64,000 nucleotides of DNA from a virus (Duplodnaviria; Caudoviricetes). Shown here in pieces: positions 2,366 through 53,600 of the stretch (position 1 is its first letter; every line of letters starts with the position of its first letter). Made by a program: the position numbers and the translations under genes. Where the stretch lies: the IMG/VR virus record IMGVR_UViG_3300046615_000588, positions 37,396-101,395 of that record, one strand, 5' to 3'. The notes below the pieces were generated by a model. The model saw only the letters and a program-made list of their open reading frames with translations. It was not told where the DNA came from and did not search any database.

Positions 2366-2391
2366 ACCGCCCTTTCGGGCGGTTTTCTTTT
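2366..2391 (+). terminator. Intrinsic terminator between convergent operons
   Basis: ACCGCCC-TTTC-GGGCGGT followed by TTTCTTTT. Confidence 0.75.
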
Positions 2392-2716
2392 AACTGTCGC
2401 GCACCCGCGCCACGCAATACACGGTCCATTTACCCAGCAAGCCAGCCCCCGCGTCCACCTCGATTTCCGCCGAATAACGCGCGTTGGGCTGCAAGTCCAG
2501 GCTGGCCGGGAGCATGGCGCGGTACACCCCCTTGCTGGCGGCCACGTAGGGCATGGGCTTAGGCCAGGTGTCGCCAGTGGTTTCCGCGCCGTCCGCGTCG
2601 TACAGCGTCACCTCCACCGTGGCGCTGTTGAGGTAGTCGCCCGTTAGTTCCTCCCGAACGTGGCACACTTCCAGGATGTTGTCGTTGTCGATATACAGTA
2701 CCGAGATTGTGCTCAT
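2390..2716 (-). CDS. Putative virion protein, Ig-like beta-sandwich (fibre anchor candidate)
   Basis: Last gene of the fibre operon, ATGA overlap with the upstream gene; beta-rich 108 aa. Confidence 0.7.
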   Translation of the reverse strand: MSTISVLYIDNDNILEVCHVREELTGDYLNSATVEVTLYDADGAETTGDTWPKPMPYVAASKGVYRAMLPASLDLQPNARYSAEIEVDAGAGLLGKWTVYCVARVRDS

Positions 2717-5109
2717 CGCGCGGGCCTCAAGATGGTGTCGCCAGCCAGTGCTGGCCTGAAACGGCTATGGGCCTGCACCGATGCCGCTATCCCGACATGC
2801 GCACTGACAGCATGGCGCACCCTGATCCGGTCCACATCGATGCACCCCTCGTGCAGCACATATTCGGCGAGACTGCCGCTGACCGACTGCCCGGCCTGGC
2901 CGGTGCCAACCACGGCATCCACCCCGACAACGATCAACCCCTGTGCGCGCTGCGCCTGTGCCGTGGCCGCAATGCTATCGACCGCCACGGCGGCGCTGAC
3001 GATGACCGTCTGGCCCTGCCAGGTCTGCACTGTGCACGCCGCCGACAACTCGCCGCTGGCCGCGACGCTCTGGCTGGCCTGGAAGGTCTGCGCGCCCGGT
3101 CCGTCGTTGAGCGCAAGCAGGTCGCCGCGCATGGTTTGCGCCTGCCCGGTGACGGCCTGCCCATCACTGCCCACCTGGGCGCTGGCCGCCACCAGCTGTG
3201 CCTGCGCGGTGCCGCCACTGGCATCCACCGACAACGCCGCATCCGCGCTGACCGATTGGGCCTGACTGGTATTAACCTGGGCGCTGAATTCCTCCTGCCC
3301 CTGCGCCTGCACGCTCTGGCCTTGCGCGGTGCCGACCAGCGCCGCCGCGGCCACTTCGCCGCTGGCCAACACGGTTTGCCCTTGGCTGGTGGCCGCGCTG
3401 CTGTCGAGCACCTGCGCCGAGCTGGCCAGCGTGGTTTGCGCCTGACTGGTGCCGGCTATCGCGTCCACCGCAATCTGGCCATCCGCGCTGGCACTCTGCG
3501 CCTGGGCCGTGGCGCTCACGGCGTCCACGCCGACCGCGCCGCTGGCGGCCGCACTTTGCGCCTGACTGGTGGCCACCCCGGCGGCGTCGCCGTTCAATGC
3601 CGTGGCCGCGACACTCTGGCCCTGGCTGGTGCTGCCGCTGGCCGCCGCGTCCACGGCGGCGCTGGCCGAGCTGGTTTGACCCTGGCTGGTGGCTACGTCA
3701 AGGACCGCTTGCAACGCGCCGCTGGCGGCTACCGATTGCGCCTGACTGGTGGCCGCGACAACGTCCAGCGACGGCGCCACGCTGGCCAACACCGATTGCG
3801 CCTGGCTGGTGCCGACCACGGCGTCGTTCGCCGAGGCCATGCTGGCCGTCGTGCTTTGCGCCTGACTGCTGCTGCTGCTGGCGTCCACGCCCACGCTGCC
3901 GCTCGCCGCTACCGTTTGCGCCTGCGCCGTGGCGCTCGCCGTTGACGAGGTTTCCGCCAGCACGGCAACGCTCTGGCCCTGGCTGGTGGCGACACTGGCC
4001 AGCGCCTCCAGCGCCGCGTTGGCCGTCGTCGTTTGCGCCTGGGCACTGGCACACACGGCGTCCACGGCAGCCGCGCCGCTGGCCGCCACCGTCTGCGCTT
4101 GCGCGCTGCCAATGACGGCATCGACGGCGACAATCCCGCTGGCGGTCAGCGTTTGCCCTTGACTGGTGGCCACGCTGGCGGACACGTCCAGCGCGCCAGT
4201 GGCGGCGATTGATTGCGCCTGAGCGGTGCCGATGGCGGCTTCGGCCACGAGCGCACCAGCTGCAGACAGCGTTTGCGCCTGCGCGGTGGCGCTTGTGGCG
4301 TCCACACCAAGCACGGCACTGCCCGCCACCGTCTGACCCTGGCTGCTTGTCGCCGTGGCGTTGACCGCCAACAGCCCGCTTGCGCTCACACTCTGCGCCT
4401 GGCTGGTGGCCACCACGCAGGTATTGTCCGGCTCGACAGCGATGAACGGTTCACCCTTGAAACCGATATCAAGCGTGCTGGTGATGATGCCGTGCTTACT
4501 CGTGACCTGGATAAATGGCTCGCCAGCAAACGCCAGATCAAGGCTGGCCAGTTCGGCGGCGCTCTTGAGCGTGCCGGTGTACGCGGCGACCGACTGCGCC
4601 TGGCTGGTAGCAATAGCGCAGGTGTTGGCCGCCTCGACGGCGACGAATGGTTCGCCCTTGAAGCCAATATCAAGCGTGCTGGTGGTGACGCCCGCCTTGG
4701 CCGTCACCTGCGCGAACGGCTCGCCGCCAAACGCCAGGTCTAAGCTGGCCAACGCAAGCGCGCTCTTGAGCGTGCGCGTGCATGCGGCGACGGATTGCGA
4801 CGCCTGGCCGGTGGCCACCACGGCCACCACGCCGGTTGATCCGGTGGCCAGCACGGTCTGGCCCTGCTGCGTGCTGCCGCTGGCGGCCACACCGACCGCG
4901 CCGCTGGCCGTGACGCTTTGCCCCTGGCGCGTCGCCACGGTGCCATCAATACTGCCAAGGGCCGCCTCCACCGCGAGGAAGGGCTGGCCTTGATAGCCGC
5001 TGTCCAGACTGGTGGTGGTGATGCCGTTCTTACCCGTCACCTGGACAAATGGCGCACCGTTGAACGCCAGATCAAGCGCGGCAAGTTCCAGGGCGGTCTT
5101 GAGCGTCAT
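2713..5109 (-). CDS. Fibre shaft/adaptor protein: three ~48-aa N-terminal modules plus ~30 20-aa repeats
   Basis: (T/S)SQ(A/G)Q(S/T)VAASG repeats with 60-bp periodicity; modules at aa 2-49, 113-160 and 180-227. Confidence 0.8.
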   Translation of the reverse strand: MTLKTALELAALDLAFNGAPFVQVTGKNGITTTSLDSGYQGQPFLAVEAALGSIDGTVATRQGQSVTASGAVGVAASGSTQQGQTVLATGSTGVVAVVATGQASQSVAACTRTLKSALALASLDLAFGGEPFAQVTAKAGVTTSTLDIGFKGEPFVAVEAANTCAIATSQAQSVAAYTGTLKSAAELASLDLAFAGEPFIQVTSKHGIITSTLDIGFKGEPFIAVEPDNTCVVATSQAQSVSASGLLAVNATATSSQGQTVAGSAVLGVDATSATAQAQTLSAAGALVAEAAIGTAQAQSIAATGALDVSASVATSQGQTLTASGIVAVDAVIGSAQAQTVAASGAAAVDAVCASAQAQTTTANAALEALASVATSQGQSVAVLAETSSTASATAQAQTVAASGSVGVDASSSSSQAQSTTASMASANDAVVGTSQAQSVLASVAPSLDVVAATSQAQSVAASGALQAVLDVATSQGQTSSASAAVDAAASGSTSQGQSVAATALNGDAAGVATSQAQSAAASGAVGVDAVSATAQAQSASADGQIAVDAIAGTSQAQTTLASSAQVLDSSAATSQGQTVLASGEVAAAALVGTAQGQSVQAQGQEEFSAQVNTSQAQSVSADAALSVDASGGTAQAQLVAASAQVGSDGQAVTGQAQTMRGDLLALNDGPGAQTFQASQSVAASGELSAACTVQTWQGQTVIVSAAVAVDSIAATAQAQRAQGLIVVGVDAVVGTGQAGQSVSGSLAEYVLHEGCIDVDRIRVRHAVSAHVGIAASVQAHSRFRPALAGDTILRPAR
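2880..4420 (-). repeat. Degenerate 60-bp coding tandem repeat, ~26 units
   Basis: gctggcc...gcgcctgactggt recurs in register every 60 nt, clearest at 3361-3960. Confidence 0.85.
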
Positions 5110-5111
5110 GG

Positions 5112-7952
5112 CTATGCCTGGGTGATGGAGATATCGTCAATCCAGAAATTGTTGCTCGTGCCGACGCCATCATAGACTTGGAACAGCACCTCGACCACGC
5201 CAGCCTCGCTCGGTGTGAAGGTCAAATTGCTCGATTGGGTCCAGGTGTTGATCGTTGGCGCACAGGCCACTGACACATCGCTGGGCACACCGGCGATCTG
5301 GCCGCCCTGCACCAGCAGCTTGCCGTTGATGTTGGTGTTATCGCGCCGCGTCCAGATGGACAGCGTGACCAGATTGTTTGCACTTAACGCGATCTTGGCC
5401 ACCGACAGGGTGAGTGGATAGACCGCTGTCCGGCTGGTGGCGGTTGGGCGGAATTTCCAGGCGATCCCGCTGCCCGTGTGGCGTTGATCGGTGGCTGAGA
5501 TTATCGTGCCGCCATCCGTGGTGATCACATGGCTGGTCGCCGTGCCACCATCTTTTTGCGAGTAGAGGTAGGCATTAACGCCGCTGGTCAATGGGGCATA
5601 CGCGGTCGTGTCGGTCAGCGAGCTATTGAACAGGATCAGCCCCGCGCTGGCATACGCCCCGGCGCTGACATTCGACGCCGTGACCAGCCGCGAAATTTTT
5701 ACGGGGAAAACCGGGCCACTCTGCGTGTAGAGGCCGTATGCGCCGCTGTTCTTCGCGGTGAAGTCCTGCATCATGCCCTGGCTGGATCCGCCGCCGAGGC
5801 TGATGTTTTGCGAAATATTGCTGTAGGCGGACAGGGCGCGCGCCTGCATCATGGTCGAACTAAGCAGTATCCCCAATGTGTCGCCATTGTGCGCGGCGAT
5901 GCCGAGAAACGAACTCGGTCCGGCGCTACCACTTGTCCCGGCGGTTGCGATCCCGCTGCTATTGGTATTATTGGCGTGGCAATTCTTGACGATGCAATAA
6001 GTAAATGAATACAGGTTCGAGAACCCGGTGTAGCATCGGACGCTGTTGAGGTTGTCAAACACCAGGTACGACGAGGTGTTGGCGTTGAAGCCGCTGTTGA
6101 AATACGCATCCTGGCCGTCGATCCAGGTTTCCCCGGTCTGCGTGGACATATCGGTCGTGTTCCAGCCGCCGCTATAGGTGATCGGGCTGCCGGACGTGCC
6201 GCCTTCCTGAACAATATTGAACGCGGTAAAGGCGCTGACCATCGCCTGCTTGATGGTTTCCCGCTTGTAGGTGGCCACCGTTTCCGTGCTGCCGCCGTAG
6301 CCGCGCCCCGCATTGCCCAGCGTCTGCGGGCCGTTGTCCAGCTTGACGGTGGTGCCGTTGATCGACTGGATGCCGTACCACGTATCCTCCAGGTCGTCGC
6401 AGGTCCAGGTCAGCGCGCCATCGGTGACGGTCGCGCCGATCTCCAGCGGCCAGGTCGGCTCCGTGCTGCCGGAATTGCCACCGCCACCCGCCGTGACCTT
6501 GTAACGGTAGCCGTTGCGGTTCGGCGGCGTCGGCTTGCGCAGATCGTTGCTGGCGTAGGCGGTCGATGCGGTCCAGTTCAGATTCCACACCTTGCCGATC
6601 AGCGAGGTCAGTGAGAGCGAGTCGGCGCTGCTGGACGCCTTGCAGGCGATGATGTTGTCCACCTGGACCGTGACCGCCGCGATGTCCACGTCCTGGTACA
6701 GCGCCACCGACTGAATGGCGCTGTTCATGTTCGTACCGAGATCGACCGTGACCGGCAACCACACCGACCCTTGGTTGGTGGGTGGCAGCGGGATCGTATG
6801 CACCGAGGTCGCGCCAGCGGTGTCGGTGCACAGGCGCAGCGACAGCGTGTTGGCGGTGATGGCGGCGGTGGCGTACACCCAAAAACTAACCTGCTGATAC
6901 CCGGACAGATTCAACGTGCCGGTGGCGAAGTAGGCGCACAGGCCGGTGGTGAACGCCCCGGCGATCACATGCTTGGCCGACTTGGTGTTTTCCTTGAACT
7001 GCGAAGTGTCGGCGGTGCTGGTGACGTTGGCACTGGCCGTCCATGCTGTTTCGCAGTCGCTGATATTCAGGGTGACAGCCGACGCCAGCGTGATGGTCTT
7101 GCTGTTCTGCGTCCAGGTGGCGTTGCCGATCGATGTCGGATTGGTCGAGGACATGATGCGGATCGTGTCACCCGGCGCGGTGCGCGCAGCGGTCGCGCCA
7201 CTGGCGAAGGTCTTCCAGCGGGTGCCGAACGCTGCGCCCGAGACCACTGTGTTCAAATGCGCCAGCAACACAACCGAAGCGAACGAGGCGTCACCGGCAC
7301 CGACACTGTCAGGGAAGGCGGCCGTGGGGGCGGTGAACGCCCCGGCATAGCGCGCGACACCTTTGGTAACACGCACCTCGTCCACCCAGCCATCGATCTT
7401 GCGGATGCCACGATCATCATTGCCGATCACCAGTTGCGCGGTGTTATTGATAAAAGTGGAGCCGACCGTGGCTGACCCTTTGACCACGCCATCAACGTAG
7501 ACCCGCAACACGTTCGACGCATCCCTATCGGCGGCGACGTGATACCAGGTGTTGGCCGAGGGAGTCCAGGCCACTGGCGTACCCAGCAGGTCCGATCCGG
7601 TGGTCGAGTAGTAGAAAACAATATGCGTACTATCGTCCATTCCGAAGTACCAGCCGAACTGCGGGCTATTGCCAAATTGCGAAATGAAGGAACACGCGCC
7701 CACGTTGTTGAACCGCACCCAGCCTTCGACAGTGAACTGCCCGGCCCCGAACAGCCAGTCAGCGCTGTCGTCGGCGCTGATGCCGGAGGTGGAACTGGCA
7801 GTGCTCAGGTCCAGGCAGGAGCCGCCGAATTTACTTTGAGCGCTCGTATAGCCTGCCGAGCCGACTGCGTTCAGCATACGCGCCGTCGTCGAGCTATCAA
7901 CGGCGATCGCCGTGTCGCTGCCCCCCACCAAATCCATGTAAAAAGTGGCCAT
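5112..7952 (-). CDS. Receptor-binding/adhesin paralog 3 (946 aa) with inserted LamG/ConA-like domain and beta-helix region
   Basis: Shares MATFYxDLxGG N-terminus and DGVGTxNNFWIDDISIxQ C-terminus with neighbours; insert has FTVEGWVRF, WYHVA, YVDG and DEVRVTKGVARY LamG motifs. Confidence 0.8.
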   Translation of the reverse strand: MATFYMDLVGGSDTAIAVDSSTTARMLNAVGSAGYTSAQSKFGGSCLDLSTASSTSGISADDSADWLFGAGQFTVEGWVRFNNVGACSFISQFGNSPQFGWYFGMDDSTHIVFYYSTTGSDLLGTPVAWTPSANTWYHVAADRDASNVLRVYVDGVVKGSATVGSTFINNTAQLVIGNDDRGIRKIDGWVDEVRVTKGVARYAGAFTAPTAAFPDSVGAGDASFASVVLLAHLNTVVSGAAFGTRWKTFASGATAARTAPGDTIRIMSSTNPTSIGNATWTQNSKTITLASAVTLNISDCETAWTASANVTSTADTSQFKENTKSAKHVIAGAFTTGLCAYFATGTLNLSGYQQVSFWVYATAAITANTLSLRLCTDTAGATSVHTIPLPPTNQGSVWLPVTVDLGTNMNSAIQSVALYQDVDIAAVTVQVDNIIACKASSSADSLSLTSLIGKVWNLNWTASTAYASNDLRKPTPPNRNGYRYKVTAGGGGNSGSTEPTWPLEIGATVTDGALTWTCDDLEDTWYGIQSINGTTVKLDNGPQTLGNAGRGYGGSTETVATYKRETIKQAMVSAFTAFNIVQEGGTSGSPITYSGGWNTTDMSTQTGETWIDGQDAYFNSGFNANTSSYLVFDNLNSVRCYTGFSNLYSFTYCIVKNCHANNTNSSGIATAGTSGSAGPSSFLGIAAHNGDTLGILLSSTMMQARALSAYSNISQNISLGGGSSQGMMQDFTAKNSGAYGLYTQSGPVFPVKISRLVTASNVSAGAYASAGLILFNSSLTDTTAYAPLTSGVNAYLYSQKDGGTATSHVITTDGGTIISATDQRHTGSGIAWKFRPTATSRTAVYPLTLSVAKIALSANNLVTLSIWTRRDNTNINGKLLVQGGQIAGVPSDVSVACAPTINTWTQSSNLTFTPSEAGVVEVLFQVYDGVGTSNNFWIDDISITQA

Positions 7953-7964
7953 GGAAGCAATCCC

Positions 7965-7987
7965 AAAAAAAGCCCAGCAGGACGGGC
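7965..7987 (-). terminator. Weak intrinsic terminator between adhesin paralogs 2 and 3
   Basis: GCCC-8nt-GGGC followed by T7 on the minus strand. Confidence 0.4.
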
Positions 7988-7994
7988 AAGGTGT

Positions 7995-10172
7995 CTACGA
8001 CTGGCTGATCGAAATGTCGTCAATCCAGAAATTGTTAGTTGTGCCCACCCCGTCCCATACCTGGAACAGCACTTCCACCACACCATCCTCGGTGGGGGCT
8101 AAGGTCAGGTTGCCCGACTGTGTCCAGGTATTGATCGAGGGCGCACAGCTTATCGACACGTCAGCGCCGACCCCGGCCAGCTGCCCGCCCCGCACCAGCA
8201 ACTGGCCGGCGATATCGGTGCTGTCGCGCCGCGTCCAGATGGAAATTGTCACCAGCGCGTTCGCGCTCACCGCCACCTTGGCCAGCGACAGGCGCAGCGG
8301 ATAGGCGCTGGTGCGCGTGGTGGAGGTGGGGCGGAATTTCCAGCTGATGCCGGAAGCGGTATGCCGCTGGTCGGTGGCCGAGACGATGCTGCCGCCGTCG
8401 GTCCAGATCAAATGGTTATCCGCCGTCTGGTCGTGCTTGTGCGAATAAATATAGGTGTTGTAATAATCTGGCAGAACGCCGAAGGCGGTGGCGCTCGACA
8501 GGCAATTGACCAGGTTGACGCGCGTGCAACCGACCGAGTTGGACGCCGTCAGGCTCGCCGTGCTATTGCCGCTGGCCACAAAACCGCTCAGCGACAGCTC
8601 GCGTGCGGAAGCATGATTGAACCCATAGCCGCCATTGCACTTGGCCCAGATATCACGGATCAAGGGGCCGGACAGGAACCCGCCATTGGCGGTGGAGTAC
8701 CCTGTTGCACAGCCATTGGCCTGGATCGCCAGCGCATCAAGAGTGACGTTGAAGGTCGAGAAAGCCGTGCCGGTGCCGCACATGCTGGTGACGACATTGC
8801 GCAAGGTTACAATCGCGTCCGCCGTATAGCTGAAACCCGTGCTGTCGTTGTTGTGGTGGCAGTTCTTGTAGCGCCAGTATTTATTGCCGTACTGCGTCCC
8901 AAAACTGAACCGCAGCGAATTGAAATTCTCCAGCGTGATGTAATCCATGCCGTTGCTGTGCAAGGCGACCCCCGCCCCGTTGCCGCCCGCCAGCCACGTC
9001 TCGCCAGTCTGCGTACTCATGTCGGTGCGGTTCCAACCACCCGAATACACAATAGGCTGCGTGCTGGTGCCGCTCTCCTGGGGCACGTTGAAGGTGCTGG
9101 TGGTGGTGGACAGCAGCGCCTGCGCCAGCGACTCGCGCTTGTAGGTGGCTATCGTTTCGCTAGCGTGCGGGTAGCGGCCAGTCGTCGAACTACTCGTGGT
9201 GCCAACAGGGCCATCGAGTTTGACGGTGGTGCCACTGATCGAAGCGATGCCGTACCACGTATCCTCCAAGCCCTCGCACAGCCAGGTCACGCCGCCATCG
9301 GTCACGCTCGCACCGATCTGCTGCGGCCAGCTCGGCTCACTGCTGCCAGTCGCCCCGGTCTGCGCCGTCACCTGATACTTGTAGCCGTTGCGGTTCGGTT
9401 GCGTCGGGCGGCGGATGTCGTTCACCGCGTAGCTGGTGGAGGCGATCCAGCTCAGGTTGTGCACCTTGCCGATCAAGGAATTCAAGGTCAGCGCGTCGGC
9501 GCTGGAAGACGCCTTGCAGGCAATAATGTGATCCAGGCGGATGGTGACGGTGCCGGGGTCCAGGTCGCAGTACAGGGCCACCGAATTGATGGACGAACTC
9601 AGGTTCGCGCCCAGGTCCAGCGTGACCGGCAACCAAGCCGACATGCCGGCCATCGGGATGGCCGGGATGGGGATGGTGTGCACGCTGGTCGCCCCGGCCG
9701 CGTCCGAACACAGGCGCAGCGAGCATGTCGATGCGGCGAGGGCCACACTCGTTGACACCCAAAACGACACTTGCTGGTAGCTCGACAAGTCCAGCGCGCC
9801 GGTGGCGAAGTAAGCGGCCAGGCCGGTGGTGAAGCCCGAGGCGATGTCGAGCTTGGCATATTTACTGCCCTCCTTCTGGAGGGAAGGGCCAGAACTGGCA
9901 GTGGCCGTCACGTTGGTCGAGGCGGTCCAGGCTGTCTCACAGTCGGCAATGTTGGCCGTCACCGCGCCGGGCAGCGTCACCGTGCGGCTGAGATTGGTCC
10001 AGCTGGCGTTGCCCACCAGCGTCGGATCAGGCGAGGCCATGATACGGATCGTGTCGCCGGGGGCGGTGCGTGCGGCGGTGGCGCCACTGGCGAAAGTCTT
10101 CCAGCGATTGGCGAACGTGGTCCCGTCGTTGCTGTCGTTGCCGCCGACCAGATCGAGGTAAAAAGTCGCCAT
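7995..10172 (-). CDS. Receptor-binding/adhesin paralog 2 (725 aa)
   Basis: Same conserved termini; CBM-like WxASTxY...EPxWP...DGGVTW insert; N/G/S-rich beta-helix-like centre. Confidence 0.8.
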   Translation of the reverse strand: MATFYLDLVGGNDSNDGTTFANRWKTFASGATAARTAPGDTIRIMASPDPTLVGNASWTNLSRTVTLPGAVTANIADCETAWTASTNVTATASSGPSLQKEGSKYAKLDIASGFTTGLAAYFATGALDLSSYQQVSFWVSTSVALAASTCSLRLCSDAAGATSVHTIPIPAIPMAGMSAWLPVTLDLGANLSSSINSVALYCDLDPGTVTIRLDHIIACKASSSADALTLNSLIGKVHNLSWIASTSYAVNDIRRPTQPNRNGYKYQVTAQTGATGSSEPSWPQQIGASVTDGGVTWLCEGLEDTWYGIASISGTTVKLDGPVGTTSSSTTGRYPHASETIATYKRESLAQALLSTTTSTFNVPQESGTSTQPIVYSGGWNRTDMSTQTGETWLAGGNGAGVALHSNGMDYITLENFNSLRFSFGTQYGNKYWRYKNCHHNNDSTGFSYTADAIVTLRNVVTSMCGTGTAFSTFNVTLDALAIQANGCATGYSTANGGFLSGPLIRDIWAKCNGGYGFNHASARELSLSGFVASGNSTASLTASNSVGCTRVNLVNCLSSATAFGVLPDYYNTYIYSHKHDQTADNHLIWTDGGSIVSATDQRHTASGISWKFRPTSTTRTSAYPLRLSLAKVAVSANALVTISIWTRRDSTDIAGQLLVRGGQLAGVGADVSISCAPSINTWTQSGNLTLAPTEDGVVEVLFQVWDGVGTTNNFWIDDISISQS

Positions 10173-10178
10173 GGATGT

Positions 10179-12350
10179 CTACGCCTGGGTAATCGAAATG
10201 TCGTCAATCCAGAAGTTATTTGACGTACCCACACCGTCCCACACCTGGAACAACACTTCGACCACGCCGGACTCGCTCGGCGTGAAAGTCAGGTTGCCCG
10301 ATTGCGTCCAGGTGTTGATCGACGGCGCGCAGCTCACCGACACATCGCTGGGCACGCCCGCGATCTGACCGCCCTGCACCAGCAGCTGGCCAGCGATGTT
10401 GCTGTTGTCACGCCGGGTCCAGATGGCGATCGTCACCAATGAATTGGCCAGCACCGCCACTTTCGCCACCGACAGGTGCAGCGGATAGTCGCTGGTGTGA
10501 TTGGTCGAGGTGGGGCGGAATTTCCAGCTGATGCCAGACGCCGTGTGGCGCTGATCGGTGGCGGAAATGATGCTGCCGCCATCGGTCCAGATCAGGTGGT
10601 TGCCGGCGGTCTGATCGTGTTTTTGCGAATAAATATAGGTGCCGCGAAAATCCGGCGGATCGACAAACTCGGTGCCGCTCAACAGGCTGTTGACCAGATT
10701 GACGCGCGTGCAGCCACCAGACGCCGCCAGGCAGGCGGTGCCATTGCCGCTGGCCACAAAACCTGTCAGCGACAGTTCGCGCACGGACAGGTGATTCAGC
10801 CCATAGGTGGCGTTGCCCTTGGCCCAGATATCGCGTACCGGGGGGCCGCACAATGCGCCGTTCGATGAGCTGGTAACGAACCCCGCCGCATTGTTGCCAT
10901 TGGCCTGGATCGCCAGCGCGTCAAAGTAGCCACCACCCTGCGAGAAATCCATGCCGACGCCGCTGCACATGCTGGTGATGACGTTGCGCAGTATGAGCGT
11001 ATTAAAACTCAACGACAACACCAAACCATTCGTCGCATTGTTGTGGTGGCAGTTCTTATGCTGCCAGGAAGTTCTCAGGAAATAAAAACCATACGAGTAG
11101 CGCACCGAATTGAAATTCTCGACGGTGATGTAATCCATGTTATTACCGTAAAAGGCGACCCCCAAGCCGTTGCCGCCCGTAATCCACGTCTCGCCGGTCT
11201 GCGTACTCATGTCGGTACGGTTCCAGCCGCCCGAATACACGATGGACTGCGTACTGGTGCCACTCTCCTGCACCCCGTTGAAGGTGTTGCTGCTGCTGGA
11301 CAGCTGCCCCTGCGCCAGCGGCTCGCGCTTGTAGGTGGCCACCGTTCCGGTGGCGTGCGGGTAGCCATACGCCGTCGCGGATGGCAGCGCATTGACATCG
11401 CCATCCAGCGTCACGCTGGTGCCGTTGATTGAGGCGATGGCGTACCAGGTATCTTCCAGCCCCTCGCACAGCCAGGTTACGCCCCCATCGATGACGCTCT
11501 GGCCGATGCCCTGCGGCCAGGCCGGCTCGCTGCTGCCGGTCGCGCCCGTCTGCGCCGTCACCTGATACTTGTAGCCGTTGCGGTTCGGTTGCGTGGGGCG
11601 ACGGATATCGTTTACCGCATACGTCGTGGAGGCCAGCCAGCTCAGGTTGTGCACCTTGCCGATCAAGGAATTCAAGGTCAGCGCATCGGCACTGGAAGAT
11701 GCCTTGCAAGCGATGATGTTGTCCAGGCGGATCTCGACGCTTCCAGTGTCCACCTCGCAGTACAGGGCGATGGAATTGATAGACGAACTCAGGTTGGTGC
11801 CGAGATCAACCGTTATCGGCACCCACTTACTGATGGATGTAAAAAATGGGATCGGTATCGTATGCACGCTGGTGAGGCCAGAAGTATCGCTGCACAGGCG
11901 CAGGGACAGGTTACCAGCGTTAATAAAGGAGTTGGAGTTCGCCCAAAACGACACCTGCTGGTAAGCGGACAAGTCCAGCGTGCCGGTGGCGAAGTAGGCG
12001 GCCAGGCCGGTGGTGAAGTCTGGTTGGATGGAGCAATAGATCGCTTGCGTACCATCCTTGTAGCTCGTGGTATAGGGGCCGGAAATGACATCGGCCGGGA
12101 CGCTCCAATTGTCGTCGCAATTGCAAATGGTCGCCGTCACCGCGCTGGCCAGCGTGACCGTGCGGCTGGCGTTGGTCCAGGTGGCATTGCCCACCAGCGT
12201 CTCATTCGGCGAAGCCATGATGCGGATGGTGTCGCCCGGCGCCGTGCGCGCGGCTGTCGCGCCACTGGCAAAGGTCTTCCAGCGATTGGCGAAGCTGGTG
12301 CCGTCATTGGCGTCGTTGCCGCCAATGAGGTCCATGTAAAAAGTCGCCAT
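10179..12350 (-). CDS. Receptor-binding/adhesin paralog 1 (723 aa)
   Basis: Same architecture; 47-48 bp blocks identical to paralog 2. Confidence 0.8.
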   Translation of the reverse strand: MATFYMDLIGGNDANDGTSFANRWKTFASGATAARTAPGDTIRIMASPNETLVGNATWTNASRTVTLASAVTATICNCDDNWSVPADVISGPYTTSYKDGTQAIYCSIQPDFTTGLAAYFATGTLDLSAYQQVSFWANSNSFINAGNLSLRLCSDTSGLTSVHTIPIPFFTSISKWVPITVDLGTNLSSSINSIALYCEVDTGSVEIRLDNIIACKASSSADALTLNSLIGKVHNLSWLASTTYAVNDIRRPTQPNRNGYKYQVTAQTGATGSSEPAWPQGIGQSVIDGGVTWLCEGLEDTWYAIASINGTSVTLDGDVNALPSATAYGYPHATGTVATYKREPLAQGQLSSSSNTFNGVQESGTSTQSIVYSGGWNRTDMSTQTGETWITGGNGLGVAFYGNNMDYITVENFNSVRYSYGFYFLRTSWQHKNCHHNNATNGLVLSLSFNTLILRNVITSMCSGVGMDFSQGGGYFDALAIQANGNNAAGFVTSSSNGALCGPPVRDIWAKGNATYGLNHLSVRELSLTGFVASGNGTACLAASGGCTRVNLVNSLLSGTEFVDPPDFRGTYIYSQKHDQTAGNHLIWTDGGSIISATDQRHTASGISWKFRPTSTNHTSDYPLHLSVAKVAVLANSLVTIAIWTRRDNSNIAGQLLVQGGQIAGVPSDVSVSCAPSINTWTQSGNLTFTPSESGVVEVLFQVWDGVGTSNNFWIDDISITQA

Positions 12351-12376
12351 GCCGCGCCCCTAGCGCCCGCGCCCGC

Positions 12377-12796
12377 TTACAGGCCCGAGGTGGCTTTGTT
12401 GAGCGTGTGCACGAAGGCCGAGCAGGACACCGTTTGCGCCGCCGTGATGGTGGTGGTGGCGATGTTCAGGTTGGCGCCCGAGGTGCCGACGGTGCCGTCC
12501 AGGATGGCAGTGGTGCCGTCCGATTTCAGCGCGCGGAACCAGGTCGCCGTGCCGCTGGCGTCAGCCGACGAATCGGCGGTGATGGCGTTGGCCGTCATCA
12601 CGCCGGCCGAGGTCGCGCCAAAGGCGGTAGCGCCAAAGCGCAGCTCGGCCAGCAGCGTGTTGCCCGACAGCGCCGTGTCGGCGGTGGCCGGTTTGGTGCC
12701 GCTGTAGAGGCGCAGGTAGCCATTGTTGAGCAGTGGCCCCAGGGCGTCACCCTCGGCGTTGACGGCGGCGTTGGACAGCTGGGTATCGAGAGCCAT
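12377..12796 (-). CDS. Small virion structural protein (fibre-associated)
   Basis: GGAG SD; LRLYSGTKPA...ADASGTATWFR...DGTVGTSG pattern typical of phage structural modules. Confidence 0.75.
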   Translation of the reverse strand: MALDTQLSNAAVNAEGDALGPLLNNGYLRLYSGTKPATADTALSGNTLLAELRFGATAFGATSAGVMTANAITADSSADASGTATWFRALKSDGTTAILDGTVGTSGANLNIATTTITAAQTVSCSAFVHTLNKATSGL

Positions 12797-47628: not shown

Positions 47629-50600
47629 TTACGGGGTCTCGTCGGCGAAGGCGCCGGCGGCGCGCGCATCGCGGCGCGACTTCGGCAAGAAGATGCCTTC
47701 CTTGGCCTGCGCCACATGCTGCATGTGCAGGCGCACGCTATGCTGCAGGTGCAGCGGCGCTATCATGCGGGTCGGGTGCAGCGCATTGAATGCCTGGATC
47801 GCCTGCAAGGTGGCCGCCGGGTCTTCCTGCCGCATGACGTGGTGCGCATACTCAGTCATCAGCTGCTGACGGCGCTGCTGCAAGGCCTTGTCGGTCTGGT
47901 AGATCGCGCTTTTCCCGGCCTGCGCCTCACGGCCGCGGCTCGGCGAAAAGCCGAGGAACTGGCCGGCATCCTCGGCCAGCGTGGTCTCGGGCAGCAGCTC
48001 GATGCCGGTGCGGTCCTTGATCCCCTCCTGGGCGTAGCGCAGGGTTTTCAACGGCCCGCGCAGGAACGCCGGCATCATTTCCTCCAGCCCGCGCTGCCAG
48101 TCGCCGTTGTGAGCAATGGTGTACATGCCCTTGGACGCATTCACGACCATGCCGGCTACCGGCCCCAGCAACCCGGTCATGTACGACTCGGCCAGCGGTG
48201 CACCGGCCAGCCCTTCCTGCACGTCCGGTAGCAGCAGCGAATTGAGCCCGACGCGCGCGGAAATGTCCCACGGCGTCAGGCGCGACAGGCCATGCGCCAG
48301 CACTTCGCCGGCCTTGTCGCCGAAGGCGTCGGCCATCAGGTTGCGCAGCGCGATCTCGGCGTCCCACGGCTCGTCGTCCGAACCGCCGATCATCGAAGCG
48401 GCGGCCAGCAACGTGCCCACCACCGGCAGGCCCAGCACGCCAGCGGCCAGCGCGTGGGTCGTCAGCAGGCCGGCGATGGTCTTGGCGGCCTGGCGATCGC
48501 CCTTGACCGCGCGCACCGCGTTGCGGGTGAAGGTGTAGATCATGTTCTGCGCGTATTGCTTAAATAGCAACACAACCCGCGCCACGTCTCCCTGCATCAC
48601 GCGCGCGCGATTGCCCGACGAATAATCGAAGTGCGCCGCGTTGGTGTCCTGCACCGAAGCAGCGTAGGCGGCGTCGTGGTCCATGCCCTGCTCGCGGGCC
48701 AGCCGGTATGACGCCAGCGCTGTGGCCTGGCGGTTGAAGCGTTCGGCGTGGTGGAACATGAACGACGCCGTTTTCAGCACCGTGCCCATGGCGCCGTGCA
48801 GCGCGCTGTCGTGGCCGGCGGCGATGCTGGTCAGGTCGTGCGCCAAGGTCACATCCACCAGCCCCGACTTGATCCAGCCCTCATAGGCGCGCAGCTCGTC
48901 GCCGGTAAGGACCTTGCCCATGTCGTTGTGGCCGCGCACCGCGTCCTGCGAGGCGGCGGTCAGCGCCGAGGCGGCCTTGCCGAAGCCGTAGCGCCCGCCC
49001 AGGATCGGATAGGCCACCAGCGCCGTCTGCGTTAGGTTGACCGCCGCCGACGCCGGCGACAGGCCGAGGTAGAACACGAAGCCGACCGAGGTCAGCCAGT
49101 TCGACAGCTTATTGTTTTTCGGGTTCAAATACAGGTCGTGGCGCTTGACCATTTCATCAACCACCTGCTGCGCCTTGACCGCATCGTAGCCGGCGTCCTG
49201 GTTGTGCGCGTTGACGTAGTGCTGCATGTCGTCGATCGCCTGTGCCAGCTGGTCGGCGTAGTTCAGCTTGGCCAGGTAGCGCGCGCCGTGGAACATGTGG
49301 TTGGCGAACGCGCGGCGTGCGTCCTGCGAGAAGCCGGGCGTGCCCTTGCGGTGGATGCCGTGCTTGGCCCACGACAGGTCAGGCAAGGACGTCAGGTACA
49401 GCTGGTTGATCGCGTCCTGCAGGGACGGGTCCATGCCGGTGGTCTTGAACAGATTGAACATTTGCTGCAGGAAGCCACGCCCCACCGAATCGCGCGCCGC
49501 GTTGTACTCGGCGCGCAGGGTCACCTGCGCCACCTGGTAGCCCCGCTCCGGCGGGTACTGCTTGATCAGCTCGGCGCGCAGGGCCTGCGCCTCGCCCATG
49601 GTTTCGGCGAAGTGGATCGCCTCGCGCGCCTGCCCCATGGCCGGGTTCGGGTTGACCCCGCGCCAGTTCACCTGCACCATGTAGTCGCCGAAGCGCGCCA
49701 GCGGGAAGTAGATGCCCTTGATCTTGCCGAAGAACTCAGCATCCATGCGCGCCAGCATCGCGGCGCGGTTCGGGTTGCCGGCCAGGGCGCGGTCGATGCG
49801 CTGGTGCACGGCTTCCCGCACCGCGGCGTAGTGCTTCTCATAGGCGTTGGAGGCCTCGGTGAAGACCGCCTTGGCGCCCGGTGACAGCGCCTCGTAGCGG
49901 GCGCGCAGTTCGGTGTAGTTGGTCTTGATGTCGCCCATCACGTACTTCTTGCGCGGGTCGATCTGGTACAGGGTCGCGTCGTGCATCAGTTCGGCCAGCG
50001 CCTGGTGGTCCTTCAGCTTGCCCCAATCGGTGGCGATGGTGTCGGCCTGCGCGCTGGTGTCGTGTTTCTCGGCGTCCATCCGCATGGCCAGCTTGTTGTA
50101 CAGCGCCATCAGGTTGTCCTTGATCCCTTGCGGGAACAGGTGGCCGTACACCTCGACCAGCTGCTGGCGGCCGAGGAACTGCAACGCTATCCGGCCGTAA
50201 TCGACCAGTTTGTTCTTGATGCTGGTGACGGTCAGTGCTTTGATGGTTGATCCCACCTGGCGCGAGATATCGGACGGGCTGCGCGAGAACAGGATATTCG
50301 GGTTGGTCGGGTCGAAGTTGCCATTGTTGCCGGTGGCGGATTTTATCTGCCCTGGCTCGAAGGCGATAAAGACATCGCCTTCGAGCTTGTCGATCTTGTC
50401 GCCGTAGATGGCAACGCCGTCGTACCCCTCATCGAGGGCCGCCTGACGGAATTGCTCTACCCCGCCCTCTCGTTCAACGGCAGCGCGGAAAGCCTTGATC
50501 GCACCCTGTTGTTCATCACCTTGGAAGGTAATCGGGCGCTGGATTGACAAGTAGGAGGGCATAATAGTACTGCCGTACTTGCTGGCCGAGTCAGCATTGC

Positions 50601-53600
50601 TGCTGAACCAGCTGCCAATGGTGTCGAGTTTCAGCCCGCCCCTGTTGTCGGCCTCCTGCCCCCGGTCGAACACATTGAAATCTCGGTAAGTGCCGTGATA
50701 CACCACCAGCGGCTTGCCGTTCCCGTCCACCACCTTGCTGTCGCGGAACCAGCGCTGGAAGGCGTCCGTGTCCTGTTGCTGGCGCGCGAACAGCGGCAGG
50801 CCGGCCTGCGCCTTCTCGCGCAGGGAGTCGCTGATGGCGAAGCCGGGTTGCTCGGTGGTCCCGTATCCCGGCTGAAGCATGCCAAGCCGGCGCGCGCGCT
50901 CGATTCCAGGGCGTTCGGCATCGCTGGCGGTATCAACACGGATGGTCCCGACCTTGCCGCCGCCGAGCTTTTTCAGCACGTCGTTGACCACGTTCGGCAC
51001 GATCTGGTCGTAGAAAGTTTTCATGCCTTCGCCGCCGACGCGCAGATCGGCACCGCTATAGGTCTGGTCCACCGGCTCATCGAGAACCGCCTTGCTCAGC
51101 GGCTTACCGTCCGGCACCACCTGCATGTCATACGCGCGGGCAATCTCCTGTGCCATCCGAAGCTGGTATTTTTTGCCGTCAAACGGCATGCCATCGGCGG
51201 ACTGCACGCGGTACATTTGCACGCCAGCCCGCTTGGCCGCATCCTTGGCCGCCAGGTCGGCGACGGCGCGCTGCCCCAGCTCCTGGCCAATGAAGTCCGC
51301 CAGCCCGGCGGCGTCAACACCGGCGCGCTCGGTCAGACGCTGCGGGGATTCGTCGTCAACCGCGCCGAATACGCTGTAACGACCGTCAGGGCGCAGCAGC
51401 ACGCGGATCTCACGCACATGCTTTTCAAGGCTATAGCGCTCGACCGACTGCTGGCCGTTGACGAAGGCCACCTTGTCGTAGCCGTTTTGCGCCGCGTAGG
51501 CGATCATGCGCTTGACCGCCAGCGACAGCCACGCCTCGGTCTTGCCGACGAACGGGGCGCGTTTGATGCCCTTGTCCTTGGCCGCCAGGGCTTCCTGCGC
51601 GCTGTTCGCGGCGATCAGCGCGTCGCTGGCGGCCCCGACCACTTGTAGCTGGGCGCTTTTATGATCCAGCGCCTCGTTGAGATACTTGTTGGCACTGGCC
51701 AGCCTGCCCTGCTCGGTGCGCGGGTCGCGCTCCAGCTTGGCCAGTTGCTCGTTCCAGTGCCGCACGTCGCCCTCGTATTTGGCCAGCATTGAGCGCGCCG
51801 CGTCCAGCGCCAGATCGGCCTCGTTGGCGGCGTCGGCCGCCGCACGCAATTCCTGCGCCGTTGCCGGTGGCCCGGCGAAACCCTTGCGCTTGCCCTGCTG
51901 CCCCCAATCGGACTGCATTTCCTCGATGAACAGCACGCGCTTGCCGTCGGCATCGGTGCGGTCGTTAAAGCGGATATGCGCCAGCACGTTCGGCTCGTTC
52001 CAATGGGCCGAAACGAACATCGGCTGTTTGCGCTTCTCGTCGCGCAGTTCGCTCAGTTGCGCCCGCTCGCCCGGCGTCAGCTGGTCTTCGGTCCAGTTCG
52101 GGTAGGTGATGTTGTTCACAGTATGGGTGCCGTACTTTTCGCTCAACGCATCAATATAGTCGTCAATGGCGAAGTACGACTCCTTGATTGGCAGGGTCAG
52201 CAGCAGCTCGCGGTAGTTGGCGCCGCCCGGCAGCTGGTATTGACCAAACTGGCTGGGTGGCGTGGTATCGGCCGGCAGGCGGTAGGCATCGTTCGCCGCG
52301 CGGTCGCGCTCGGTCATCAATTCCTCCATCTCGTCGCGCGCCTCGTCGTTTTCACGATTGGACAGCGTATGGTCCCAGGCGCGCTGGTTCGCCGCATCGA
52401 TGCGGGGCTGGTACTGGTCGAACACGGCCTTGCGCTGGGCCAAACCTTCCTCGCTGGCCGGTGCCGGTTCGCCCTGCATGGTTTCGCTCACGCGCACGCC
52501 GTTCTCGGCCAGGTAGTTTTGCAGCTGCGCCTTGTCCACCTTTTTCACGCCGGCCTGCGCCTGCAGCAGCAGCCAGTCCAGCACGCCGGACCACTGGATT
52601 TCGTCCTGCTTGACGCCCTGCTGCGAAAACGCGGTGCCCATGATGGTTTCACCCCAATGCAGCGGCGAGGCCGTCTTCATCACCGTCTTGTCGATCTGGC
52701 GCGCCAGCGTCGAGTAGAACACCGGCGCGTGCGCCTCGTCGCGGGCGAACACCGGCATCGCCGGGCCTGCCTCGCCGGTGGCCTTCGCGGCCAGGCTCCT
52801 GCGCGCCTCAGCCAGCAGGTGCGCCAGGTCGGTGTTGCCGTACTCGGCCAGCTTGGCGAAGCCGTGCGCGCGCAGCCAGGCGCGCACCGCGCCGATGAAC
52901 TCGTTGATCTTCTGGCGCAGCACGGTCTTCTTCTCGGCCAGGTGCGCCAGCAGCTCGTCCATCATGATGGCGCGGCGCTGCTCGTCGGTCAGGCTGGTGT
53001 CGGCTTGCAGGCCGGCGGCGTAGTCGTGCAGGTCGATCTTGTTGGCGGCGGCCAGCCGGTACAGGCCGGCACCGCCGCCGATGGCTTTCAGCAGTGCATT
53101 CTGCTTGGCCAGCCACTCGCCGCCAAACAGGCTGGCGGTGGCGGCGTGGCCGTATAATTCGTGGAATATCGTCCTTTCCACTTCCTCCGCCGTGCCATGG
53201 GCCTGCTGCACCACATATACGGTGTTCTCAAAATACACACCCTTGCCAAGATCAAGCTGCTGGCGACGCGCCGCCTCCTGCAAGGCCGGCGGCAAGTCTT
53301 CCATCCCCCGCACTGGCTGGATGGCGATGGGCAGAGCGGCGCCCGCGCGCCGGGCGAAGGCGGCCTGGATGCGCTTGACGACGGCATCCATGGCGCGGTC
53401 GCTGATCGGCTCTGCGTGCTGCGCGACGGCCCCCGCCTGGCCATTCTTGGCACGCGCAAATAGCGGGTCCTCGGCGCGGCGCTTGCGGTCCTCGGCGCGC
53501 CGTTGCAGGCGTGGTTGCGGTTCCGGTCCCGGCTCCCGATCGCCGGTCAAGGTCAATTCCGGGACCGCCGGGGCGCTATTGGCCGCGGCGGCCTGCGGTT

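Follow-up and report, generated by a model that had tools for sequence, protein, structure and literature searches.

The complete virus record IMGVR_UViG_3300046615_000588 (101,395 bp, with 127-bp direct terminal repeats) carries a minus-strand operon, separate from its main virion genes, that encodes three paralogous adhesins and a 798-amino-acid (aa) repeat protein in which a ~48-aa module occurs three times. Here, we analyze this module and its relationship to the adhesins within a window of 64,000 nucleotides (nt) that covers bases 37,396-101,395 of the record; window positions are used unless marked genome. The operon comes after the replication genes (primase, helicase, and resolvase) and reads, in order, P0005 (139 aa), the adhesins P0004, P0003, and P0002, the repeat protein P0001, and P0006 (108 aa). 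Its gene junctions are tight or overlapping, with P0001 starting 2 nt past the stop of P0002, the third adhesin. As judged from sequence comparison, a partnership between the module and this family of adhesins is well supported, and it is plausible that P0001 forms one shaft holding three adhesins.

A preliminary description of this DNA had placed three paralogous adhesins with conserved termini and divergent, beta-helix-like centers directly upstream of the repeat protein, and we found that this description holds throughout. The paralogs are 57-71% identical to one another, with their N-terminal ~320 aa and C-terminal ~150 aa conserved and aa ~400-560 divergent. Since blocks of their DNA are only 63-85% identical, the paralogs are not assembly artefacts, and recent gene conversion between them could be ruled out. 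The AlphaFold2 (AF2) model of P0003 is a single compact multi-domain protein (predicted local distance difference test, pLDDT, of 92.1; predicted template modeling score, pTM, of 0.87), and it indicates that the adhesin core is a right-handed parallel beta-helix. Foldseek matched this model in the PDB to the tailspike depolymerases 6TKU (KP32gp38), 8IQ5, 5W6H, and 6W4Q, with K2-2 TSP and the CBA120 spikes TSP2 and TSP4 among the matched spikes, as well as to GH87 glucanases and the carbohydrate-binding modules CBM16/CBM61. The match probabilities were ~1.0 but whole-chain template modeling (TM) scores were only 0.15-0.24, which are low because extra domains are present. Among the BFVD viral models, the best match was a 783-aa protein, the length of the homolog in Methanosarcina virus MetMV, followed by pectate-lyase and tail-fiber proteins, while a sequence search of P0003 against the PDB returned nothing significant. 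Residues 1-10 of the model have a pLDDT of 95, and the first strand (aa 3-6) lies within the compact fold. Since this strand belongs to the fold, the adhesin appears to have no separate N-terminal particle-binding domain.

Searching P0001 with a regular expression (TLK[ST]A...LDLAFxGxPF...LDxG[YF]xGxPFxAVE) returned exactly three ~48-aa modules, at the same coordinates as previously described (Table 1). Each module consists of two half-motifs, LD.[AG][FY].G.PF..V, located ~23 aa apart, and all three match a profile built from 60 modules of other loci with E values of ~1e-17. The 20-aa repeats had been counted at ~26 and placed after the modules; the count is close to ours, as the landmark Q[GA]Q occurs 29 times at 20-aa spacing and corresponds to ~27 repeats, but the placement is not, since two or three repeats lie between modules 1 and 2 and one lies between modules 2 and 3. 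At positions 4393-4799, TRF detected a 201-nt tandem duplication (78% identity) whose copies each hold one 20-aa repeat and the module after it, namely module 2 or module 3, and the single module of the closest relative, at locus L010, corresponds to module 2 of P0001, preceding repeat included. Orthologs of P0001 occur in 12 loci and have the repeats and the C-terminal ~95 aa in common, the latter being kept in L010, L020, L015, L052, L011, L045, L050, L072, and L013 (phmmer E 1e-44 to 2e-4). In these relatives, the same type of 20-aa repeat is broken up by LamG, discoidin-like, and other globular domains. Since the repeat proteins of the relatives carry such domains, P0001 is best seen as a fiber with a binding potential of its own, and not as a bare shaft. 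P0001 had no Pfam or PHROG match, its aa 1-240 matched nothing significant among PDB sequences, and its only match among 50,697 phage genomes was MetMV (tblastn, via the module). At L010, the single adhesin and the repeat protein are separated by a 329-aa open reading frame (ORF) with a typical fiber-like N-terminus (VKESTTTTGTGAITL; L010:12188-13174), which has no counterpart in the window.

The module profile found 957 clusters (50% identity) at E<=1e-3 among 1.84 billion representative proteins, and because of this abundance we conclude that the sequence pattern of the module is not a chance one. Most of these proteins are 58-100 aa long and consist of the module and a short variable tail, while a minority have two, three, four, or six modules (six in P0014; four each in P0010 and P0011; three each in P0019, P0020, P0053, and P0158). 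The family has a common anatomy, with half-motifs 20-25 aa apart after an (A/S)LPxxxDL lead, which the modules of P0001 fit. No Pfam or PHROG model covers the family, eight free-standing module proteins belonged to no Pfam or PHROG family, and the proteins are named only 'hypothetical protein'. A search for P0010, P0011, P0014, and P0020 in viral contigs found nothing. For a free-standing module protein, the ESM Atlas model had a pLDDT of 0.32 and a pTM of 0.10, and a feature search of the ESM Atlas gave no usable match; a model of such low confidence fits a linear motif that would be unfolded alone and order on binding. Many free-standing modules (P0024, P0059, P0114, P0067, and others) end in a short, strongly hydrophobic stretch after a Pro- or Gly-rich linker (for example, ...RVIFIS, ...NFFLFFN, and ...IFFGINF), and this stretch might be a second, carrier-specific anchor strand. 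Since the module is mostly free-standing, a shaft with docking sites would be a derived special case. The shaft originally proposed for P0001 thus had to be modified, both on this account and because the repeat proteins of its relatives carry globular domains of their own.

Aligning the adhesin led to 80 viral, 12 genomic, and 80 metagenomic loci, which we scored with the module profile and with profiles of the adhesin N-domain (adN) and C-domain (adC); the 115 informative loci formed 90 non-redundant clusters. One or more modules stood beside the adhesin in 81 of these 90, and no module was found away from an adhesin within them. The module typically starts shortly after the adhesin (median of 178 nt past its stop, with 67 of 83 modules within 300 nt), and seven modules are located just upstream of the adhesin instead. 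Sampling in the reverse direction gave the same picture: when viral contigs were searched with two degenerate DNA patterns for the motif, all 14 matched contigs had an adhesin homolog directly adjacent to the module. MetMV has one adhesin homolog (40% identity), followed after 14 nt by a 466-aa protein that starts with one module. A free-standing module protein searched against cultured phages matched only via its unrelated tail (E 0.07). This two-gene cassette occurs in a Variovorax paradoxus genome and also, among others, in contigs from bins assigned to Methanoperedens, Patescibacteria, and Desulfobacterota. The spread is unusually broad, with the cassette in contigs at L089, L092, L093, and L095 that are binned, taking the bins as assigned, as Methanoperedens, Moraniibacteriota, other Patescibacteria, and Doudnabacteria. 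No further component could be common to carrier viruses this diverse (P0005-like genes occur in 18 loci only), which argues for the adhesin as the partner of the module. Moreover, a peptide that is 40-50% identical needs an equally conserved surface and therefore points to the adhesin, the sole conserved candidate.

Within the adhesin, the evidence converges on the C-domain. Where a locus lacks a module, the C-domain is weaker (median of 108 vs 159 bits, p 0.008) but the N-domain is equal (p 0.45), and three adhesin homologs with only an N-domain have no module. For 74 non-redundant 1:1 pairs, the correlation of module distances was stronger with distances of the C-domain (r 0.71, partial 0.59) than with those of the N-domain (r 0.52, partial 0.23). 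There are also natural fusions: in P0083, a metagenomic protein of 808 aa, the adhesin C-domain is fused straight to a full module and then to a further 200-aa domain, and the adhesins of L063/L160, L146, and L150 end in a C-terminal fused half-motif, GGNPxLxNM[DN]YxFQAQPxVM, and a Gly-rich tail without a separate module gene. The fused half-motif accounts for two of the nine module-less clusters and for one further locus. Since the C-domain is weak where the module is missing, N-domain-only homologs lack a module, the two elements occur as fusions, and they diverge together, the partner of the module is most likely the C-terminal jelly-roll of the adhesin. A complex prediction using the alignments of P0003 and module 2 scored 0.09 (mark, 0.32), a result that counts neither for nor against binding.

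If modules dock adhesins, their numbers might be expected to go together, and the correlation of module number with the number of adjacent adhesins had been set beforehand as a test. A six-frame profile search of the complete genome detected exactly three modules and three adhesins. Across the non-redundant loci, adhesins and modules stood at 1:1 in 72, 1:0 in nine, 1:2 in five, 2:1 in two (one of them L017), and 3:3 in two. At L017, the 1047-aa carrier starts with a further module that is weaker (E 6e-3) but clear by eye, so that this locus is really 2:2, which leaves one 2:1 locus. In the clade that has a P0005-like gene, a repeat protein, and a P0006-like gene, loci with one adhesin always have one module (L010, L011, L012, L013, L015, L020, L045/50/72, and L052), L017 has two of each, and the phage studied here has three of each. 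An unrelated clade starts from one adhesin with a two-module protein (L026-28 and L037); at L025, two more adhesins are present and a downstream protein has gained a module, giving 3:3. Having several adhesins was associated with having several modules (Fisher p 0.0018, or 0.029 without the weak L017 module, with phylogeny ignored in both). These statistics are fragile because there are only four multi-adhesin loci, two of which are related. The positive association between the two numbers therefore stands, while a strict 1:1 rule does not. The same can be said of the earlier proposal that each module docks one adhesin, where the genomic pairing is borne out by 81 of 90 loci and 14 of 14 reverse-sampled contigs and a strict one-to-one correspondence fails on the exceptions.

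Together, these findings suggest a model in which adhesins of this family have the ~48-aa unit as a portable partner peptide. The adhesin would be a self-contained beta-helix and CBM protein, its N-terminus within the fold and without a separate particle-binding domain, and it would be held by a short doubled motif, LDxA[FY]xGQPF, from another polypeptide. The motif is probably unfolded alone and would order on binding, most likely against the C-terminal jelly-roll of the adhesin. In most viruses, the module is a free small protein or the N-terminus of a tail or fiber protein. In the phage studied here, the orthologous fiber protein may have gained two extra units of 20-aa repeat plus module as the adhesin gene triplicated, so that one P0001 chain could hold up to three different adhesins in a multivalent, branched receptor-binding structure. 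From these patterns we infer the physical binding, the binding site, the stoichiometry, and the location of the assembly in the virion. That the module is the partner peptide of the adhesin and that one P0001 chain mounts three adhesins could, in our judgment, equally well prove right or wrong.

Several observations weigh against this model. Tight linkage, and not contact, could be the reason that the module lies next to the adhesin and diverges together with its C-domain. Seven of the nine module-less loci have no detected motif at all, the other two being those with the fused half-motif, and MetMV, which is itself metagenome-derived, was the sole module-bearing phage that tblastn found in the 50,697 phage genomes. 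The counts depart from a strict 1:1 ratio, with one adhesin and two modules at five loci and two adhesins and one module at one, and the sample holds only four multi-adhesin loci, two of them phylogenetically related. As for the fiber itself, the 19 aa between modules 2 and 3 of P0001 leave little room if a trimeric spike docks on each, and a simple shaft would not be expected to have its module behind discoidin or LamG domains at the N-terminus, as at L011, L013, and L020. In addition, the commonest form of the module is a tiny free protein that cannot tether anything alone unless its short variable tail serves as an anchor.

The proteins that carry the module bear on which partner is fixed to the tail. 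In ~40% of the non-redundant loci, the module forms the N-terminus of a large protein (229-1824 aa). The carrier at L049 ends in Rcc01698_C and phrog_4271 'tail protein', and that of MetMV ends in phrog_26502/12240, families that also match the C-terminus of the 943-aa tail protein of the phage studied here; by these domain matches, the carriers are virion tail proteins. Since several carriers end in tail- or hub-type domains, we suggest that the carrier, and not the adhesin, is built into the tail. The same binding could also operate with the opposite polarity, such that the adhesins are fixed to the tail in another way, P0001 is an accessory fiber or tie-bar that cross-links three of them, and free modules are caps or clamps. 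This would account for the many free 58-100-aa modules without an obvious anchor and for the LamG and discoidin domains of the P0001 relatives, which are of carbohydrate-binding type and look more like cargo than scaffold, and it would agree with an operon that starts with a homolog of a small protein of the 7-7-1 tail-fiber complex, as garland proteins tie the 7-7-1 fibers. However, the modeled adhesin has no separate N-terminal attachment domain with which it could be fixed, and the tail-type ends of the carriers speak for the other orientation, making the opposite polarity unlikely in our view.

Alternatively, the module may be an assembly factor of the adhesin, similar to tail-fiber assembly proteins, that aids folding or oligomerization of the C-domain and may then leave the virion, with three copies serving three paralogs. 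Such a role would suit a small protein that is encoded immediately downstream of a fiber-like gene, is predicted to be disordered alone, and tracks the C-domain. However, it sits poorly with the ~40% of loci in which the module belongs to a large structural protein with tail domains or fiber repeats, three chaperone units fused into a structural fiber would be unusual, and the module had no match to the Caudo_TAP, Tfa, or gp38 families; we therefore regard an assembly factor as improbable. Improbable as well is the absence of any contact, with the module binding a virion socket, itself, or the host surface and traveling in a mobile cassette, and with P0001 being an independent fourth fiber whose 3:3 match is coincidental: the exceptions to 1:1 (1:2 five times, 2:1 once) and a cis-fused half-motif that could be the adhesin's own anchor to a third partner are in its favor, but the carrier viruses range from 30 kb to >300 kb on contigs assigned to Proteobacteria, candidate-phyla bacteria, and methanogenic archaea, the loci have no other conserved gene in common (P0005-like genes being limited to 18), and both counts rose together in three independent lineages.

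The docking of three adhesins on P0001 by their partner peptides would have parallels in known systems. In phages CBA120 and G7C, several beta-helix receptor-binding proteins are mounted via docking elements of the same gene cluster, which gives one virion several specificities, and the spikes themselves bear the folded T4 gp10-like docking domains at their N-termini; branched tailspike complexes of this kind (TSP1-4 in CBA120 and gp66/gp63.1 in G7C) were reportedly described by Plattner and colleagues in 2019. The likeness lies in several spikes with distinct central domains in one cluster, three paralogs in our case. The candidate docking element here differs in being a ~48-aa doubled linear motif on a separate chain and tied to the adhesin C-domain, and, unlike in CBA120 and G7C, the adhesins appear to have no free N-terminal domain and the system is spread across very diverse viruses. 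Neither the adhesins nor P0001 contained a gp10-like docking domain in Pfam and PHROG searches. P0002 does match 'baseplate wedge subunit' PHROGs (aa 9-213), but these matches overlap its LamG insertion and are absent from P0003 and P0004.

Small attachment elements are also known from SP6/K1-5 (the gp37 adaptor) and from Klebsiella KP32-type phages, in which a small adaptor or a short conserved peptide attaches exchangeable depolymerase spikes to an invariant tail, the conserved peptide being located N-terminally in the second spike. The module is not related to these elements in sequence, and the motif here sits on a carrier or is free-standing, is repeated per chain, and extends beyond one phage family. 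The Tfa proteins of lambda, Mu, and P2 and gp38 of T4 are encoded directly downstream of a fiber gene and act on the C-terminal tip of the fiber, some of them staying bound. The module gene has a similar position immediately downstream of the adhesin, but it differs in having no family match, in being much shorter, in often being fused to the N-terminus of large tail or fiber proteins, and in being present in multiple copies in some chains. In the donor-strand complementation of chaperone-usher pili, a short peptide, disordered by itself and with hydrophobic residues in an alternating pattern, completes the beta-sandwich of its partner in trans or in cis, and we draw on this as a mechanistic analogy only. 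Multi-adhesin docking is a known kind of system, while the module family that would serve it here is previously unannotated.

How several receptor-binding proteins are mounted sets host range and is central to phages engineered for a chosen specificity. A few cultured enterobacterial phages are the source of the known solutions (gp10-like domains, N-terminal anchor peptides, and the SP6-type adaptor). The module family, in contrast, numbers ~1000 clusters at 50% identity and is linked to a single adhesin family in viruses and hosts of very different kinds. If the binding is true, a 48-aa tag and a ~150-aa socket would make a compact, portable docking pair. In its most general form, the doubled LDxA[FY]xGQPF would be a universal transferable plug that locks the adhesin via its C-terminal jelly-roll, perhaps by strand complementation, onto any carrier, so that viruses of bacteria, candidate-phyla bacteria, and methanogenic archaea would set the valency and makeup of their receptor-binding apparatus by the numbers of plug and adhesin genes. 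We consider this extension possible but on the doubtful side. If true, it would be a docking principle apart from the gp10-like and N-terminal-peptide systems, with direct use in modular phage engineering. Even if the branched-fiber picture is wrong, adhesin and module form a conserved two-gene cassette that annotation has missed, and the module is a simple marker for receptor-binding genes in metagenomic viruses.

Table 1. Features of the adhesin operon and its borders (window positions).
Feature	Position	Strand	Basis
P0005, 139 aa, small lectin-like virion protein, first operon gene	12377..12796	-	phrog_3758 'virion structural protein', E 4e-32
Adhesin paralog 1, P0004, 723 aa	10179..12350	-	71% identical to P0003; adN and adC profile matches
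Adhesin paralog 2, P0003, 725 aa; predicted beta-helix, CBM-like domains, C-terminal jelly-roll	7995..10172	-	AF2, Foldseek
Adhesin paralog 3, P0002, 946 aa; LamG/ConA-like insertion	5112..7952	-	PF13385 Laminin_G_3, E 6e-20
P0002 LamG insertion, aa 57-197, just after the N-terminal FYxD strand	~7362-7784	-	PF13385; alignment
P0001, 798-aa repeat/fiber protein with three modules	2713..5109	-	translation
P0001 module 1, aa 2-49	4963..5106	-	regular expression; module profile E 8e-18
P0001 module 2, aa 113-160	4630..4773	-	regular expression; module profile E 5e-18
P0001 module 3, aa 180-227	4429..4572	-	regular expression; module profile E 7e-17
P0001 main run of 20-aa repeats, consensus ~xATSQAQSVxASGxxxVDAx, ~24 copies	2905..4428	-	Q[GA]Q landmarks, 20-aa spacing
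P0001 conserved C-terminal ~95 aa, candidate attachment end	2716..3000	-	phmmer vs relatives
P0006, 108 aa, Ig-like beta-sandwich	2390..2716	-	AF2 pLDDT 87.6, pTM 0.80
Terminator-like hairpin with T-run, end of upstream replication operon, just before P0005	12816..12834	-	consensus scan, weak
Terminator-like hairpin in the 42-nt gap between adhesins 2 and 3	7972..7987	-	consensus scan, weak
GC-rich hairpin between convergent operons, just beyond the end of P0006	2366..2383	+	consensus scan, weak

In adhesins of this family, insertions share one hot spot directly behind the N-terminal FYxD strand, where P0002 has its LamG domain, MetMV has a different insert of ~85 aa at the same site, and many relatives (953-1060 aa) have other inserts, as seen from split adN profile matches. 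Among cellular genomes, the closest homolog of the adhesin (56% identity) is encoded at 9998-12163 of contig JAGGNU010000066.1 of Variovorax paradoxus ISL-3 (L088), where a 57-aa frame holding the module immediately precedes the adhesin instead of following it. Since the closest cellular adhesin is from Variovorax paradoxus and the G+C content is 64%, there are hints that the host of the phage is a member of the Comamonadaceae. Variovorax phage VPv81, a cultured phage with an unverified record, was considered as a model and rejected, as its diverged adhesin-like gene spans the record junction and comes without a module.

The two small proteins at the ends of the operon had been taken as anchors of the fiber, and neither assignment found support. 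P0005 is instead homologous to a small structural protein of the tail-fiber complex of Agrobacterium phage 7-7-1, namely chain A (141 aa) of PDB 9RKV (phmmer E 6.3e-8, aa 8-127), and it also matches PDB 44nx_B (E 3.4e-10). Homologs of P0005 are located just upstream of the adhesin in 18 loci. Phage 7-7-1 encodes a small garland protein, gp014, beside its long fiber gp015, and gp014 is a homodimer bound to distal parts of the tail fibers in the virion (PMC12796354). Chain A of 9RKV is probably this garland protein, going by its size and the description in that paper and not by a chain table. P0005 resembles the small 7-7-1 protein in length (139 vs 141 aa) and in its position beside the gene of a beta-helix/jelly-roll fiber; a difference is that 7-7-1 is a myovirus, whereas no sheath or tube genes were found among the large ORFs scanned in the phage studied here. 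P0006 is only a generic Ig-like sandwich by its predicted fold, with matches to Ig, FN3, CopC, and pilus-chaperone structures at TM scores of 0.45-0.57, and it matched nothing significant among PDB sequences. It is co-inherited with the repeat protein in 12 loci, and since its start overlaps the stop of P0001, the two genes are translationally coupled.

The consensus scan that returned the hairpins in Table 1 gave one promoter-like and nine terminator-like sites in total, which is not above the frequency in shuffled sequence. The whole region had no match among the 50,697 phage genomes by megablast. A giant ORF of 5406 aa occupies window positions 47629-63849 (-), and its C-terminal 1500 aa match DarB-like antirestriction and helicase PHROGs. 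Outside the window, the main virion gene set comprises the terminase, a 1082-aa portal, the major head protein, a head-closure protein, a 265-aa protein, and the 943-aa tail protein. The C-terminal half of the 265-aa protein (locus L004; genome 13388-14185, -) is a paralog of P0005 (phrog_3758), and its gene lies directly upstream of that of the 943-aa tail protein (genome 10541-13372, -), which shares PHROGs 26502 and 12240 at its C-terminus with the MetMV module carrier. The phage may thus carry two parallel sets of a small lectin-like protein and a fiber.

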